From sequence record MH550421: a stretch of DNA of 64,000 nucleotides. One strand, given 5' to 3'. Positions within the stretch are counted from its first letter, which is position 1, and the number at the start of each line of letters is the position of its first letter. Below, one piece after another: positions 4,493 through 63,989 of the stretch. This DNA is from Enterobacteria phage T6. Position numbers and translations under genes: made by a program. The notes beneath the pieces were generated by a model, which worked only from the letters and a program-made list of their open reading frames with translations, searched no databases and was not told the DNA's origin.

Positions 4493-6000
4493 ATGGATAT
4501 TAAAGTACATTTTCACGACTTCAGTCATGTACGCATCGATTGTGAAGAGAGCACGTTTCACGAATTAAGAGATTTCTTTTCGTTTGAGGCCGATGGATAT
4601 AGATTTAATCCTCGCTTCAGATGTGGCAACTGGGATGGACGAATCCGTCTTTTAGATTATAATCGACTTCTTCCATTCGGCTTAGTCGGGCAAATTAAAA
4701 AGTTCTGTGATAACTTTGGCTATAAAGCCTGGATTGACCCACAAATTAACGAAAAAGAAGAATTATCAAGAAAAGATTTTGATGAATGGCTTTCTAAATT
4801 AGAAATCTATTCAGGAAATAAAAGAATTGAACCACACTGGTATCAAAAAGATGCAGTGTTCGAAGGATTAGTTAATCGTCGTAGAATTCTTAATCTTCCA
4901 ACATCTGCAGGTAAATCTTTAATTCAAGCTTTGCTTGCGCGGTATTATTTGGAAAATTATGAAGGTAAAATTCTTATCATTGTTCCAACAACTGCTCTGA
5001 CAACTCAGATGGCTGATGACTTTGTTGACTATCGTTTATTCAGTCATGCAATGATAAAGAAAATCGGTGGCGGAGCATCAAAAGATGATAAATATAAAAA
5101 TGATGCACCAGTCGTTGTTGGTACATGGCAAACTGTAGTTAAACAACCGAAAGAATGGTTCTCACAGTTTGGAATGATGATGAATGATGAATGCCATCTT
5201 GCTACAGGAAAAAGTATTTCATCTATCATATCAGGATTAAATAATTGCATGTTTAAATTTGGTTTGTCTGGTTCATTACGTGATGGAAAAGCCAATATCA
5301 TGCAGTATGTTGGAATGTTTGGTGAAATATTTAAGCCAGTAACGACTTCTAAGTTAATGGAAGATGGACAAGTAACTGAGCTAAAAATTAATAGTATTTT
5401 TCTTCGCTATCCCGATGAGTTCACTACTAAATTAAAGGGAAAAACTTACCAAGAAGAAATAAAAATTATTACTGGGCTTAGTAAAAGAAATAAATGGATC
5501 GCTAAATTAGCTATTAAGCTTGCGCAAAAAGATGAAAACGCTTTTGTCATGTTTAACATGTATCGCATGGTAAAGCTATTTTCGATTTAATTAAAAATGA
5601 ATACGATAAAGTTTATTACGTATCAGGGGAAGTTGATACCGAAACCCGCAATATAATGAAAACCTTAGCTGAAAATGGTAAAGGAATAATTATAGTAGCT
5701 AGTTATGGTGTATTTTCTACTGGTATTTCAGTTAAAAATCTGCATCACGTTGTTTTAGCGCACGGTGTTAAATCAAAAATCATTGTATTACAAACAATCG
5801 GTCGTGTATTACGTAAGCATGGTTCTAAAACAATCGCAACAGTCTGGGACCTCATAGATGACGCGGGCGTAGTTTCTAAATCAAAAACATCTTCTAAAAA
5901 ATACTCGCATTTAAACTATCTTTTAAAACATGGAATTGATCGTATTCAGCGTTATGCTGATGAAAAGTTTAATTATGTGATGAAAGAGGTTAAACTTTGA
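4493..6000 (+). CDS. uvsW: UvsW SF2 helicase, reading frame broken by an apparent 1-nt deletion near 5552-5556
   Basis: ORF 4493..5590 carries Walker A (LPTSAGKS) and DECH; ORF 5656..6000 in another frame carries motif VI (QTIGRVLRK); restoring one A in TTTAACATG gives a continuous 502-codon gene. Confidence 0.85.
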
Positions 6001-6689
6001 ATTATAAATTAATATATGATAATTTAATTAATAGAGCCCAGAATCGGGCTCGCCTTAATGAATACACTGAAACACATCATATAATTCCTAGATGTATGGG
6101 TGGTACAAATGATAAGTGTAATTTAGTAGAACTAACGGCTGAAGAACATTTTATAGCCCATAAACTTTTAGCTAAAATTCATCCAAACCATTACGGTATA
6201 ATTAAAGCTGTTATATGTATGGGGATGAATTCAAATACTCATGAAAGACACGTCAATAAATCTTACGCATGGGAACGTCGTAAAATGGCAGAACTTCAAT
6301 CCGGCGAAGGTAATCCATTTTACGGAAAACACCATACGGAAGAACATAAACAATATATGTCAAAACTCATGAAAAGTCGTCCAATTACATGGGGAAATAA
6401 AATTAGTAAAACTAAAAGAATGAACCCAACGAAATGGACTGAAGAAGCTAAAAGATTACATTCAATCAATCAATCGGGTAAAAATAACGGCATGTATGGA
6501 AGGAAACATTCCGCTAAATCTATTCAGAAAATTAAAGATAACATGCCAGATAATTCAGGAGCTAATAACCCAGCTGCTAAACCTATAGAAGTAAATGGTG
6601 TTAAGTATAAATGTATGAAAGATGCTTCTAAAGCTACTGGATTATCAATGTACAAACTAAGAATACTTAGAAAAACAGTTAATTTATAA
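5997..6689 (+). CDS. HNH homing endonuclease, MobE-like, with NUMOD-type C-terminal DNA-binding modules
   Basis: 230-aa ORF; N-terminal HNH core (ETHHIIPRCMGG ... NLVELTAEEHFIAH) about 60 percent identical to MobE in this window; apparent TTG start overlapping the uvsW TGA stop. Confidence 0.8.
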   Translation: MNYKLIYDNLINRAQNRARLNEYTETHHIIPRCMGGTNDKCNLVELTAEEHFIAHKLLAKIHPNHYGIIKAVICMGMNSNTHERHVNKSYAWERRKMAELQSGEGNPFYGKHHTEEHKQYMSKLMKSRPITWGNKISKTKRMNPTKWTEEAKRLHSINQSGKNNGMYGRKHSAKSIQKIKDNMPDNSGANNPAAKPIEVNGVKYKCMKDASKATGLSMYKLRILRKTVNL

Positions 6690-6714
6690 GGGCTTCGGCC
6701 CTTTGGAGAAAAAG

Positions 6715-6945
6715 ATGTTACTAGAATTTAAACAATTTCTTTATGAAGCTTCTATTGATGAATTTATGGGTAAAATTGCCTCTTGTCAAACATTAGAAGG
6801 TTTAGAAGAACTTGAAGCTTATTATAAGAAAAGAGTCAAAGAAACTGAATTAAAAGATACTGATGACATCTCTGTGAGAGATGCTTTGGCAGGAAAAAGA
6901 GCTGAATTAGAAGATTCAGACGATGAAGTAGAAGAAAGCTTTTAA
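6715..6945 (+). CDS. uvsW.1: UvsW.1 (76 aa)
   Basis: ATG at 6715 preceded by GGGCTTCGGCCC hairpin and GGAGAAAAAG Shine-Dalgarno; 76-aa product matches the reported size of T4 UvsW.1. Confidence 0.65.
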   Translation: MLLEFKQFLYEASIDEFMGKIASCQTLEGLEELEAYYKKRVKETELKDTDDISVRDALAGKRAELEDSDDEVEESF

Positions 6946-50281: not shown

Positions 50282-50287
50282 ACTGAG

Positions 50288-50310
50288 GGAGCCTTCGGGT
50301 TCCTTTTTTT
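50288..50310 (+). terminator. Terminator hairpin after gene 35
   Basis: GGGAGCC-TTCG-GGTTCC (one G-U pair) followed by TTTTTTT. Confidence 0.5.
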
Positions 50311-50313
50311 CTT

Positions 50314-50321
50314 TATAAATA
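50314..50321 (+). promoter_or_regulatory. Late promoter (TATAAATA) for genes 36-37-38
   Basis: Exact TATAAATA 23 nt upstream of the gene 36 ATG. Confidence 0.55.
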
Positions 50322-51003: not shown

Positions 51004-53988
51004 ATGGCTACTTTAAAACAAATACAATTTAAAAGAAGCAAAACCGCAGGTCAACGTCCTGCTGCTTCAGTATTAGCCGAAGGTGAATTGGCTATAAACT
51101 TAAAAGATAAAACAATTTTCACAAAAGATGACTCAGGTAGTGTTATAGAATTAGGTTTAAAATATGGAGGAACAATTGATGGTTCTTTAACTGTTAATGG
51201 AAGCATAATTGGAAATTTAACAGGTAACGCTGCAACCGCAACGAAATTAAAAACAGCACGAAAGATTAATGGTATATCTTTTGATGGGTCAAAGGACATT
51301 ACCCTAACTCCATCTGACATAAATGTAAATAGTACAACATTTATAAAAAATAATGGTGAATTACCTACTGATGCTAATTTAGATACGTATGGGCCCATTG
51401 AAGAATATCTTGGTGTTTGGTCGAAATCTACTTCAACAAATGCGCAACCAGCAAATAAATTCCCAGAAGAAAATGCCGTAGGTGTACTAGAAGTATTTGT
51501 GGCCGGCCAATTTGCTGGCACTCAGCGTTATACTGTAAGATCTGGTAACGTCTATATTCGTTCCTTATCTGCTAAATGGAATGGTGTAGATGGTCCGTGG
51601 GGTGTGTGGCGTAATGTTCAAGCGTCAACTCGTCCACTTTCACAAACGATTGACCTTGATAGCTTGGGAGAATTAGAACATTGTGGCTTATGGCGAAACA
51701 GTTCAAGCGCAATCGCATCATTTGATCGCCATTATCCAGAAGAAGGATCATCCGCACAAGGATTTTTAGAAATATTTGAAGGTGGTTTATACACGAGAAC
51801 GCAGCGATATACTACCCGCATGGGTATGGTTTATACTCGTTGTCTCGCTGCTGCATGGGATGCTAGTGCACCTAAGTGGGAGGAATGGAAGCAGGTTGGT
51901 CATGGCACACCAGCGACTTTCTATGACGGAGATCTGAATGATTTTAAAACTCCTGGGTTATATAATATTTTAGGCACTGATGCCGTTATTAACTGTCCTA
52001 CCGGTGAAGGTTTGCCGACTGTTATTGTTGGTTTGCTGGAAGTTAAACAGCGTGCTTCTGGCGGTGCTATTTTCCAAAAATTTACTACTGCCGGAACGGG
52101 TGCAACTACTCGCGATCGTATTTTTGAGCGTGCATATACTGGTAGTGCGTGGGGGGCATGGAACGAAGTATATACATCTTATTCTCTGCCAATTACTTTG
52201 GGTATGGGTGGTATTAAAGCTCAATTAACGGAGTTAGATTGGCAAACCTTTGATTTTGTCCCTGGTAGTATGTTTAGCGTTCCTTTGAACAAAATAAAGA
52301 ACATGCCAGCAAATATGAATTGGGGTACGATTGACGGAAACTTGGTTATGTTTTCTGTCGGTCCTAGCGAACACACTAGCACAGGGCGTACTGTTCAGGT
52401 TTGGCGTGGTACTGTATCCCAGACAAACTACCGTTATTTTGTCGTTCGTGTGTTCGGTAATTCTGGAAATAGAACTTGCACAGTCCGCCGTGTTGTTCTT
52501 GAAGATGGTCGCCACACATGGACAGCTCAACAAGATTTTAATGGTGCTGTTAACTTCGGTGCTCCTACCAATTTTAACTCTACTGTTAACCTTAATAACA
52601 CTACCACATTTAAAACAGAAGTTAAATTCCGCTCGTTGAATGCATTCCGTATGTATGGCGGAAAATTTGGTACATTTTTACGTAATGATGGAGAGAGTCT
52701 TTATATTCTTTCCACCGACGAAGATGATCAAGATGGAAACTTTAATACAAATAGACCTTTCCGTTATGAATTAAGAACTGGTGATGTTACTTTAGGTGGT
52801 ACTAGTGGTGCTAACGTTTTAAAATTAAAACGCGATTCTCTCACCGCATTTTTTGGTGGTGATATTAATATAAAAGGCTTGATGACTTTTGATGCCGGAC
52901 GTTTAGGATCACGAGATTATTTTAAATTTAACCATTGGGGTGATAGTAATAATGCGCGCGATAACATTATTCAGTTAGAAGACAGCAAAGGCGTTCATTT
53001 TTCCACTGAACGCACTTTAGCGACAGGTGCAATTAAGACTAAATTTTTTGGTGAAGTTGAATCCGAAGGTAGATTGATTATTAAACGTCCGGGTGATTCT
53101 ATTGTATTATCAACAACTGCTAGTAATTCTTTGCATATTCGTGGTGACATAGACGGGACTGGTAACTGGTATATTGGTAAGGGTGGTGCTGATAATGGAT
53201 TAGCGTTCTATAGTTATGCTACTAATGCTGGTGTATACATTACAAACGCAGGAGATATCACGCTAAGTCCAAAAGGCGTCGAAATGGCTCATGTCAATAA
53301 CGTTCGATTATATGTTCATGGTGAACGTTGGACTGCTAGTCAACCAGGTGATTGGGGTAGTCAGTGGCAAGTAGAAGCTCCATTATTCGTTGATCATGGT
53401 TATGTTGGTCAAGATAGTTATTATCCTATTCTTAAAGCAAGAAGCGTTATAACCAATCAAGGATATAGCACCGCTGTTGACTTTGGTATGCGTCGTATTC
53501 CATCACAGTGGGGGCAAGCAATCATTCGCGTCGGATCCACGGAGGCTTCTCCTGATGCTGGACACCCACAAGCTATATTTGAATTCCATCATGATGGATT
53601 CTTTTATACACCAGGAAATGGTAGCTTTAGCGATGTGTATATTCGTTCTGACTCCCGTCTCAAGATTAATAAAGAAGAATTAGAATATGGAGCGGTCGAA
53701 AAAGTTTGCCGACTGAAAGTTTATATTTACGATAAAGTTAAGTCTATTAAAGACCGTAGTGTTATTAAACGTGAAGTTGGTATTATTGCTCAGGACCTTG
53801 AAAAGGAATTACCGGAAGCTGTATCTAAAGTTGAAGTTGATGGATCTGATGTTCTGACAATTTCTAACTCTGCTGTGAATGCTCTTTTAATTAAGGCTAT
53901 CCAAGAAATGAGCGAAGAAATTAAAGAATTAAAAACGCCTTTCTTCACTAAAATTGCTCGCAAAATTAGTAATTATTTTAAATTCTAA
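51004..53988 (+). CDS. 37: Long tail fibre distal subunit gp37 with C-terminal intramolecular chaperone domain
   Basis: 994-aa ORF; conserved N-terminus [16 protein letters not shown]; C-terminal 113 aa (53647..53985) carry the S74-type chaperone motifs SDSRLK ... [15 protein letters not shown] ... [13 protein letters not shown]. Confidence 0.85.
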
Positions 53989-54008
53989 CAACAAGGGGCT
54001 TTGCCCCT

Positions 54009-54806
54009 TTGGAGAAAATTATGGCAGTAGTTGGTGTTCCCGGTTGGATTGGAAGTTCATCCGTAAATGAAACAGGACAACGATGGATGAGTCAAGCGGC
54101 TGGTCAATTAAGATTGGGTGTTCCTTGCTGGATGAGCCAATTCGCCGGACGCTCAAGAGAGATTATTCATACTGTAAGTGCTAATCATAATTTTAATGGT
54201 CAGTGGTTCCGTGATAGATGCTTTGAAGCTGGCGGTGCACCCATTGTATTCAATATTGTTGGTGATATCGTTTCTTATTCTAAAGATGTGCCACTTTTCT
54301 TTATGTATGGGGATACGCCTAATGAATATGTTGTTCTTAATATTCATGGTGGTGTTCATATGTGGGGTCGTGGTGGTAATGGCGGTAGCAATAGTCCTGG
54401 CTCAGCTGGGGGTCATTGTATTCAAAACGATATTGGTGGGAGACTAAGAATTAATAATGGCGGAGCTATTGCAGGCGGTGGCGGCGGTGGCGGCGGCGGA
54501 TATTATTCTCCTTTTCCACAAATGAGATTGACCTTTGGCGGCGGGGGCGGTCGTCCTTTTGGTGCGCCAGGCGGATCTATTAATATGCAATCAGGCGCGA
54601 CTGGTGGTACTATTTCTTCACCTGGCTCAGGATCCGTGAATGGTATCTATAATGGTGGAAACGGTGGTGAAGTAGGTTCCGCGGGAGGTAGATGCAATAT
54701 TCGCGGTCAAGGATCTGAATATGATGGCGGTGCTGCTGGTTATGCTGTCATAGGGTCCGCTCCAACATGGCAAAATGTTGGAGCAATATATGGTCCAAGA
54801 GTATAA
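54009..54806 (+). CDS. 38: Tail fibre adhesin gp38 (T2-type, glycine-rich motifs)
   Basis: 265-aa ORF with conserved N-terminal attachment domain and multiple Gly-rich motifs including a G9 tract (54474..54500). Confidence 0.8.
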
Positions 54807-54836
54807 TGTGAATAAATACCCTTAAAAGGAGGGTCT

Positions 54837-55493
54837 ATGGCAGCACCTAGAATATCATTTTCGCCCTCTGATATTCTGTTGGGTGTTCTAGATCGCTTGT
54901 TCAAAGATAATGCTACCGGGAAAGTTCTTGCTTCCCGGGTAGCTGTCGTAATTCTTTTGTTTATAATGGCGATTGTATGGTATAGGGGAGATAGTTTCTT
55001 TGAGTACTATAAGCAATCAAAGTATGAAACATACAGTGAAATTATTGAAAAGGAAAGAAATGCACGCTTTGAATCTGTCGCCCTGGAACAACTCCAGATA
55101 GTTCATATATCATCTGAGGCAGACTTTAGTGCGGTGTATTCTTTCCGCCCTAAAAACTTAAACTATTTTGTTGATATTATAGCATATGAAGGAAGATTAC
55201 CTTCAACAATAACTGAAAAATCACTTGGAGGATATCCTGTTGATAAAACTATGGATGAATACACAGTTCATTTAAATGGACGTCATTATTATTCCAACTC
55301 AAAATTTGCTTTTTTACCAACTAAAAAGCCTACTCCCGAAATAAACTACATGTACAGTTGTCCATATTTTAATTTGGATAATATCTATGCTGGAACGATA
55401 ACCATGTACTGGTATAGAAATGATCATATAAGTAATGACCGCCTTGAATCAATATGTGCTCAGGCGGCCAGAATATTAGGAAGGGCTAAATAA
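54837..55493 (+). CDS. t: Holin T
   Basis: 218-aa ORF with a single N-proximal transmembrane helix (VAVVILLFIMAIVWY) and large periplasmic domain. Confidence 0.85.
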   Translation: MAAPRISFSPSDILLGVLDRLFKDNATGKVLASRVAVVILLFIMAIVWYRGDSFFEYYKQSKYETYSEIIEKERNARFESVALEQLQIVHISSEADFSAVYSFRPKNLNYFVDIIAYEGRLPSTITEKSLGGYPVDKTMDEYTVHLNGRHYYSNSKFAFLPTKKPTPEINYMYSCPYFNLDNIYAGTITMYWYRNDHISNDRLESICAQAARILGRAK

Positions 55494-55766
55494 TTATTTG
55501 TTTGCATACATCTCTAGATATCGATATACACCCTCAAAACCCTCGTTGAATTCGTCGATGAGGGTTTTCTTATCTTCTTGAGTTAATTCAGAAACAATTT
55601 TACGGAATGAATTCTGATTTAACTTTCTACCTTCATGCGTTACTCCAATCTCATTCAGAAATGCAATAAAATTAGCACGATTTTCAACAATATCTTCTCT
55701 GGAAAATTTAATCAAAATAGACGCAACAGTAATAATTTCACGAACTGTATCAATGTTTTTATTCAT
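55494..55766 (-). CDS. asiA: Anti-sigma70 factor AsiA
   Basis: 90-aa ORF MNKNIDTVREIITVASILIKF...; matches T4 AsiA. Confidence 0.9.
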   Translation of the reverse strand: MNKNIDTVREIITVASILIKFSREDIVENRANFIAFLNEIGVTHEGRKLNQNSFRKIVSELTQEDKKTLIDEFNEGFEGVYRYLEMYANK

Positions 55767-62795: not shown

Positions 62796-62811
62796 CTTAA
62801 AACAAAAGGGC
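62796..62811 (-). terminator. Terminator hairpin
   Basis: AAGGGC-CGAA-GCCCTT stem-loop followed by TTTTGTTTT on the gene strand. Confidence 0.4.
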
Positions 62812-62823
62812 CGAAGCCCTTAT

Positions 62824-63018: not shown

Positions 63019-63050
63019 AATTTTCCTTAATGTGATAAGGGCCGGAGCCC

Positions 63051-63989
63051 TTATTTAAATTGTTCAGTAACGTCTTCAACTACTTCGTATTGGCAGGTAC
63101 GCATTTTAGCATCGTTGTAATCAATCGGAATTGATACTACATCACGCGGATGTACTTTAACTTTTACAACTCGGCTGGTTGAACTGCCAAAGTGACGAAT
63201 ATAAGATTTAGAACACACATGCAGACCACGAGAACAAGTTTGTGTATCATCGTCATTCACACGAGTACGTGGCATTTTAACTACTTTACCAGGACTGTTA
63301 TCAAAGGTGTTTGAGTGACAGTCAAAGTAATTGCTGCGAACTACTTTCCAAGCATAGAAGTAGCCATCTTCTGTAATTTCAATATCGTTTGCTACCAAGA
63401 AATCAAAGAGTCGAGATACCGCTTTTTGGCTTGGGTTTTCCAGCAGATTTTCCAAGAACGGAAAATAAAATTCAAAGTTTTCGCCTTTTTCCATCGAGTC
63501 AAGAATACGATCAACCAAACCAGACCGCAATTCAATATTTTGATAGAACAAGCTTCCACCTTCAATTCGAACATCGCCGGAAATATATTTTTCAACAGCG
63601 CGACGAACATTAATTTTTTGTGCAGCTTCTTCCAGCTTATCTGCTACGAGCAGATTAAGAATTTCCTGGAAGTTTGAATGAGTATTAGGAGTTGCGTTAT
63701 AAGTTACACCGTCAACAGTAATTGAAATGAATTTTTTAGATGCATTCCAAATAATGTCAGATTTAGCAACTGGAGCAATAACTGCATCGCTATTAACTTT
63801 AACTGTAATATCACCGCTAATAGTAACTTTAGAGCGTTTAGCTTCTTCAGCATTTTTCAAAACACGACGGATTGTGTCAACCGATACACCTTGCCAATCA
63901 GCCAATTCCTGTTGGGTGTAATTACCACTTGAATACAGTTTAACAATTTCAGCTTGTTCGTTTTTGGTCAGGCATTTAATATTGTACAT
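63051..63989 (-). CDS. rIIB: Rapid-lysis protein rIIB
   Basis: 312-aa ORF MYNIKCLTKNEQAEIVKLYSSGNYTQQELADW...; matches T4 rIIB. Confidence 0.9.
   Translation of the reverse strand: MYNIKCLTKNEQAEIVKLYSSGNYTQQELADWQGVSVDTIRRVLKNAEEAKRSKVTISGDITVKVNSDAVIAPVAKSDIIWNASKKFISITVDGVTYNATPNTHSNFQEILNLLVADKLEEAAQKINVRRAVEKYISGDVRIEGGSLFYQNIELRSGLVDRILDSMEKGENFEFYFPFLENLLENPSQKAVSRLFDFLVANDIEITEDGYFYAWKVVRSNYFDCHSNTFDNSPGKVVKMPRTRVNDDDTQTCSRGLHVCSKSYIRHFGSSTSRVVKVKVHPRDVVSIPIDYNDAKMRTCQYEVVEDVTEQFK

Follow-up and report, generated by a model that had tools for sequence, protein, structure and literature searches.

A predicted self-cleaving chaperone on gp37 and a glycine-rich gp38 adhesin at the receptor-binding tip of the T6 long tail fibre

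Introduction

How is the receptor-binding end of the T6 long tail fibre laid out in the DNA, and which of its two proteins, gp37 or gp38, determines the host? The gp37/gp38 module decides which bacteria T6-like phages infect and is a standard point of attack when T-even phages are to be re-targeted. Genetic work on it goes back to the 1980s-90s and structural work to 2018. We analysed this module in a window of 64,000 nucleotides of Enterobacteria phage T6 (sequence record MH550421; the window is the whole stretch of DNA considered here). A first-pass annotation, made from the letters alone, had proposed that gp37 ends in a self-cleaving chaperone domain of the S74 type, that gp38 is a glycine-rich adhesin that sets the host range, and that the two genes are joined by a hairpin and Shine-Dalgarno cassette with a close counterpart elsewhere in the window.

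The module is already known: its sequence, domains, processing model, adhesin role and receptor are all in the literature on T6 or on its closest relatives. Because the window is T6 itself, the S74 and adhesin prediction restates published results, and the locus serves as a positive control in which protein-level signatures are recognisable from raw DNA.

Results

To place the module, we searched nucleotide records with positions 53000-55500 of the window by megablast. The best match was the T6 genome record AP018814/NC_054907 (record positions 157701-160201), which is 100% identical over the full length and without gaps; hundreds of T-even relatives rank below the T6 records, at 90-95%. A 241-nt probe from the junction of genes 37 and 38 is likewise a 100% match to AF052605, a T6 deposit of 1998. 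The surrounding block has the classical long-tail-fibre arrangement, with open reading frames for gp34 (1289 aa), gp35 (371 aa), gp36 (216 aa), gp37 (994 aa), gp38 and the holin t (218 aa). The first of the two genes of interest is the following.

51004-53988, plus strand: gene 37, long tail fibre distal subunit (994-aa precursor), identified from the open reading frame, phrog_1699 and the T6 records

Residues 1-989 of gp37 match phrog_1699, "long tail fiber protein distal subunit" (E = 1.2e-230), and the part of the gene that was compared (53000-53988) is 100% identical to the T6 records, where it is annotated as long tail fiber distal subunit. The stop codon occupies 53986-53988. The first-pass annotation had set the limits of the module at 53647 and 54806, and both are exact: codon 882 of the 994 codons of gene 37 starts at the former, and the stop of gene 38 ends at the latter.

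The final 113 residues of gp37, at the extreme C terminus of the distal subunit, form the second feature.

53647-53985, plus strand: intramolecular chaperone/self-cleaving domain, gp37 residues 882-994, identified from Pfam Peptidase_S74 and the alignment with phage S16

All three motifs that had been quoted as an S74-type signature are present in these 113 codons. The proposed profile check against Peptidase_S74 (PF13884) gave a match over residues 882-940 with 39.6 bits (E = 6.6e-10), well above the curated gathering score of 22 bits; it covers model positions 1-57 of 58 and begins exactly at Ser882. The domain opens with SDSRLK, in which Ser882 and Lys887 have the spacing of the family's Ser-Lys(+5) dyad. 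When gp37 was compared with PDB sequences by phmmer, this motif aligned on the SDRRIK of the S16 gp37 fragment 6f45_A, and the alignment extends through the terminal helix; the S16 chaperone scores modestly in this pairwise comparison (E about 1e-3), and the Pfam profile match is solid. A tblastn search with the domain returned 1534 phage records; T5-like tail fibres are among them, as are streptococcal PblB-type proteins annotated "peptidase_S74 domain protein." These sequence matches support the assignment of the gp37 C terminus as an S74-type intramolecular chaperone.

Members of the S74 family have a trimeric fold of coiled coil and tentacles and carry a Ser-Lys dyad in which the lysine lies five residues after the serine; they cut just N-terminal to the serine after the trimer has folded. 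In T5 pb1, the Thr1263-Ser1264 bond is cut with Lys1269 as activator and an arginine of the neighbouring chain as folding sensor (PMC4690869), and the S/K(+5) pair is invariant even in eukaryotic MYRF (S578/K583; PMC3742443). The last 113 residues of S16 gp37 are its chaperone, and cleavage at DLNVS^SDRRIKK uncovers the docking surface for gp38; in T6-like fPS phages the junction reads DVYIR^SDGRLKI (PMC7917993). Because the T6 sequence DVYIR^SDSRLKI corresponds to the cleaved S16 site, the predicted cut in T6 gp37 lies between Arg881 and Ser882, with Lys887 as the general base, and the predicted products are an 881-residue mature gp37 and a freed fragment of 113 residues. For both T6 and T2, the gp37 C terminus is stated to be cleaved and then capped by gp38 (PMC3157838), and, as that paper cites, Drexler et al. 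(1986) showed C-terminal processing of T2 gp37. Direct evidence of gp37 cleavage appears to come from T2 and S16 only; for T6 we infer it by homology.

One record invites a different interpretation. AF052605 reads Asn at the catalytic Lys887, as might be the case if the C-terminal domain were a degenerate S74 relic that aids folding, stays uncleaved and leaves gp38 to bind uncleaved gp37. The gp37 of this record differs from that of the window at 17 positions, with K887N, an X and a short run out of frame among them; because of its X and its local frameshift the record looks error-prone, and the differences are probably old sequencing errors. Lys887 is present in the window and in the T6 genome records, the pattern S-D-x-R-x-K is retained in T2, S16 and the fPS phages, and the T6 profile match runs through positions 1-57 of the 58-position model. 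With T6 gp37 described as cleaved and the S16 docking face exposed by cleavage in the papers cited above, we regard an uncleaved relic as very improbable and favour a functional, self-cleaving domain.

Gene 38 lies directly downstream of the S74-ending gene 37, with 32 nt between the stop codon of the one and the ATG of the other.

54021-54806, plus strand: gene 38, tail-fibre adhesin (261 aa), identified from Pfam, phrog_2056, PDB matches and AF052605
54021-54146, plus strand: gp38 N-terminal attachment domain, residues 1-42 (Trp9, Trp22, Trp37), identified from Gp38_N
54366-54743, plus strand: gp38 specificity domain, about residues 116-241, with glycine-rich motifs and variable segments, identified from the glycine runs

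Two Pfam families match gp38, each with a cut-off of 25 bits: Gp38_N (PF21721) matches residues 1-42 (E = 1.4e-19, 70.3 bits), and GP38 (PF05268) matches residues 47-261 (E = 3e-71, 240.2 bits). The protein also matches phrog_2056, "tail fiber protein; host specificity" (E = 5.7e-111), and, in the PDB, the GFP-gp38 fusion structure 9v85_A (E = 4.9e-71). Comparison with the S16 gp38 structure had been suggested as a check, and residues 5-258 match it (6f45_D, E = 3.1e-49). The protein is identical to the product of gene 38 in AF052605, which was labelled "tail fiber adhesin" in 1998.

The two domains of gp38 carry different signatures. All three N-terminal tryptophans of T6 gp38 (Trp9, Trp22 and Trp37) align with tryptophans of S16 gp38, and the N-terminal gp38 tryptophans are described as prongs inserted into the gp37 tip (PMC7917993). 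Farther along, residues 110-261 are 34% glycine, with runs at residues 116-122, 152-160, 173-177 and 212-223 that include GRGGNGG, G9 and G5. These runs align with polyglycine stretches of S16 gp38 and 9v85; in the comparison with T2, S16 and 9v85 the glycine runs are conserved and the intervening segments diverge. Trojet et al. described five glycine-rich motifs and four hypervariable segments in T6 gp38 (PMC3157838).

In T4, gp38 is an assembly chaperone, and the T6 protein might be supposed to act mainly in the same way, with receptor specificity carried by the gp37 tip. The two proteins share a gene name and a position between gene 37 and t, and this is all that speaks for such a role. In a BLASTP comparison, T6 gp38 and T4 gp38 gave no meaningful alignment (E = 1.6), and the T6 protein is strongly similar to the solved S16 adhesin. 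Genetics points the same way: T6 gene 38 amber phages have normal morphology and do not adsorb, exchanges of gene 38 between T6 and PST shift the host range, and Tsx is listed as the receptor for T6-like adhesins (PMC3157838). We therefore give almost no credence to a T4-like chaperone role. The earlier proposal that gp38 belongs to the glycine-rich T2/T6/S16 type and not to the T4 type is borne out by the GP38, Gp38_N and 6f45_D matches, and the proposal that it sets the host range agrees with the published T6 genetics.

As a coding unit, gene 38 keeps the end first assigned to it, at 54806, and its start has to be corrected to the ATG at 54021, as in AF052605. The first start in the list of open reading frames, TTG at 54009, was rejected: it overlaps a hairpin and is without a Shine-Dalgarno sequence, the Gp38_N match begins at the first residue of the protein read from the ATG, and MAVVG or MAIVG opens the protein in AF052605 and in all relatives. 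The genome record AP018814 annotates gene 38 four codons too early, at this TTG inside the hairpin. The elements of the junction, and one used for comparison, are as follows.

53993-54009, plus strand: intercistronic RNA hairpin (AAGGGGC-TTT-GCCCCTT), after the stop of gene 37 and before the ribosome-binding site of gene 38
54011-54014, plus strand: Shine-Dalgarno sequence GGAG, with a 6-nt spacer to the gene 38 ATG at 54021
6688-6717, plus strand: look-alike hairpin, Shine-Dalgarno sequence and ATG before uvsW.1 (comparison element, outside the module), AAGGGC-TTCG-GCCCTT TGGAGAAAAAGATG

The gene 38 hairpin alone has a predicted fold of -10.4 kcal/mol; in its 61-nt junction context the fold is no better than that of shuffled sequences (z = -0.77), a score that this length makes uninformative. 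We aligned the junctions of JB75, RB9, SCS4, IME340, OES_C-2, VR20 (Gaprivervirus) and CHI14 (Winklervirus) and read that of T2 separately. A hairpin is present at the junction of genes 37 and 38 in all eight of these phages, which belong to three genera, and its stems and loops differ (GGGG-CAAC-, GGGGG-AAAT-, GAGGGC-TTCG-GCCCTC and GGGGC-TTCG-GCCCC among them). A kept position with varying stems and loops is what one expects if an RNA structure is under selection. A search of Rfam with the gene 38 hairpin gave no family match at E values up to 1.

Two other roles for the junction were considered and set aside. As a transcription terminator the hairpin is unlisted in a terminator scan, and only three T residues follow its stem. 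Nor does gene 38 have a late promoter of its own: no TATAAATA occurs between 50314 and 54021. The only canonical late promoter is the one at 50314, upstream of gene 36. Since no late promoter lies between it and gene 38, gene 38 would be translated from a late transcript of genes 36, 37 and 38, and these three genes are probably read from a single message.

T-even mRNAs are known for stable intercistronic hairpins, and the gene 38 hairpin is probably one of them; its role is most likely to stabilise or protect the downstream cistron or to insulate it. A more specific proposal is that the hairpin is a dedicated post-transcriptional device, an RNase barrier or translational insulator that sets the amounts of gp38 relative to gp37 from their shared late transcript. 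Its position is kept across Tequatrovirus, Gaprivervirus and Winklervirus while stem and loop change, and we consider so specialised a function possible and on balance unlikely.

The resemblance of this junction to the one before uvsW.1 is real. The string TTTGGAGAAAA around the gene 38 Shine-Dalgarno sequence recurs before uvsW.1 at 6702-6712, the two cassettes are identical at 26 of 31 positions, and a 20-mer match between them with up to three mismatches would be expected 0.01 times by chance. "Nearly identical," as the likeness had been described, slightly overstates it: the stems are of unequal length and the loops are not the same (GGGGC/TTT versus GGGC/TTCG). The uvsW.1 cassette directly precedes an 80-codon open reading frame annotated "similar to T4 UvsW helicase." In the T4 reference, the uvsW.1 hairpin has two G fewer. 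A separate observation concerns uvsW itself: compared with the T6 reference records, the gene has lost one base in the window and is split as a result.

Could the cassette be a mobile or duplicated element specific to these two junctions, spread for example by recombination or by a homing endonuclease? Besides their identity at 26 of 31 positions, the two cassettes have the string CCCTTTGGAGAAAA in common, and a homing-endonuclease open reading frame adjoins the uvsW.1 cassette in T6. We reject carriage by the endonuclease, since in T4 the uvsW.1 cassette occurs and the endonuclease does not. Nor is the design private to this pair. A search of the window for perfect GC-rich hairpins that lead, within 8 nt, into a Shine-Dalgarno sequence and a start codon found five such cassettes, and among relatives the gene 38 hairpin keeps its place while stem and loop vary. 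A mobile element therefore seems improbable, and convergence on a generic, stable hairpin with a strong Shine-Dalgarno sequence would account for the pattern.

Discussion

We put at about 95% the probability that this locus encodes the receptor-binding end of the T6 long tail fibre, in which a self-cleaving gp37 chaperone is followed by a gp38 cap that recognises Tsx. According to this model, gp37 would be made as a 994-residue precursor whose last 113 residues aid the trimerisation and folding of the three chains. Once the fibre is correctly folded, Lys887 would activate Ser882, the Arg881-Ser882 bond would be cut, and the chaperone would be freed. The exposed gp37 tip, ending in DVYIR, would then be capped by gp38, which would dock through its Trp-bearing N-terminal domain (residues 1-42), while its polyglycine core of glycine-rich motifs would hold the variable loops out to the outer-membrane protein Tsx. 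Because it is the gp38 loops that would face Tsx on the capped tip, gp38 and not gp37 would set the host range, in contrast to T4.

In T4 the genes stand in the same order as in T6, 36-37-38-t, and the N-terminal shaft of gp37 is homologous. A Pfam search of T4 gp37 found Collar and Phage_fiber repeats and no S74 match. T4 gp38, which has no Pfam match, is an unrelated assembly factor of 183 aa, unlike the T6 adhesin.

T2 is built like T6. Its gp37 ends in Peptidase_S74 (residues 1243-1300), its gene 38 lies directly downstream of the S74-ending gp37 with a hairpin before it, and its gp38 contains GP38 and Gp38_N. The two phages also share the junction VYIRSD-x-RLK, which in T2 reads SDIRLK. 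They differ in the length of gp37 (1341 aa in T2 versus 994 aa in T6), their chaperone regions are 41% identical and their gp38 proteins 46% identical, and the T2 receptor is FadL, not Tsx as in T6 (PMC3157838).

S16 provides the structural counterpart (PDB 6f45; Dunne et al. 2018). As in T6, its gp38 has three N-terminal tryptophans and polyglycine stretches, and its gp37 chaperone is 113 residues long; the cut in S16 lies just before SDRRIK. The gp37 sequence ahead of the cleavage site and the variable loops of gp38 are unlike those of T6; because these loops differ, the receptor differs.

Farther afield, the S74 domains of the K1F endosialidase and of pb1, the L-shaped fibre of T5, have the same position at the C terminus of a trimeric fibre or spike, the same Ser-Lys(+5) pair and the release after folding that is predicted for T6. 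The mature tip of T5 and K1F binds the receptor itself, whereas in T6 the cleaved tip would be the docking site for a separate adhesin.

Gene 37 and gene 38 in earlier T6 records

The 1998 T6 gene 37/38 deposit (AF052605) encodes a gp38 identical to that of the window and a gp37 that differs from it at 17 protein positions. These include K887N, at the predicted catalytic lysine (window 53662-53664), as well as E891Q, E892Q, V912L, an X, and, at 344-350, a frameshifted stretch of 7 residues. Because the lysine is retained in T2, S16, and fPS phages, the gp37 differences are probably errors of the older sequence.

The T6 genome record AP018814 starts gene 38 at a TTG at position 54009, four codons 5' of the ATG at 54021. 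We rejected this TTG, which lies within the hairpin and lacks a Shine-Dalgarno sequence; the ATG agrees with the Pfam Gp38_N alignment and with the gene 38 start in AF052605 and in all relatives. AP018814 also labels the holin a "hypothetical protein" and asiA a "DNA polymerase."

Transcription signals and recurrent cassettes

Within the tail-fiber block, a hairpin followed directly by a late promoter (50285-50321) marks a transcription-unit boundary between genes 35 and 36:

50285-50306, terminator-like hairpin with TTCG loop and T-run, 3' of gene 35
50314-50321, late-promoter consensus TATAAATA, directly 3' of the terminator-like hairpin and upstream of gene 36

Three additional GC-rich hairpin, Shine-Dalgarno, and ATG cassettes share the design of those preceding gene 38 and uvsW.1, which suggests an intercistronic motif that recurs in the T6 genome:

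23713-23728, minus strand, cassette
62806-62821, minus strand, cassette
63036-63053, minus strand, cassette

Stems of the form (A)AGGGC-TTCG/TCCG-GCCCTT are present in two of the three.

The uvsW region in T6 and T4

In the window, uvsW (4493-6000) is represented by two ORFs, 4493..5590 (365 amino acids) and 5656..6000 (114 amino acids); the T6 records AP018814 and NC_054907 carry a single 502-amino-acid ORF. The split results from a 1-base deletion near 5555-5557 (TTTAAC in the window versus TTTAAC with a third A, TTTAAAC, in both records) and reflects either a frameshifted gene in this T6 copy or a sequencing or assembly difference. The offset between window and T6 record is restored by 53000, and a compensating +1 must therefore lie somewhere within 7000-53000.

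Between uvsW and uvsW.1, the window carries a 230-amino-acid homing-endonuclease ORF (5997-6689), annotated as mobD in phage PST. T4 lacks this insert, and its uvsW leads directly into the hairpin/Shine-Dalgarno cassette. There the T4 reference reads AAGCTTCGGCCCTT (1686-1713 of L012, the NC_000866 stretch compared with the window; about 114185-114212 of NC_000866), while T6 reads AAGGGCTTCGGCCCTT (window 6688-6717), so that the T4 stem is short of two G compared with T6. The T4 record, which flags "sequence discrepancies," annotates uvsW and uvsW.1 as one 587-codon ORF, uvsW; a compression error at the GC hairpin would explain this fused T4 ORF.
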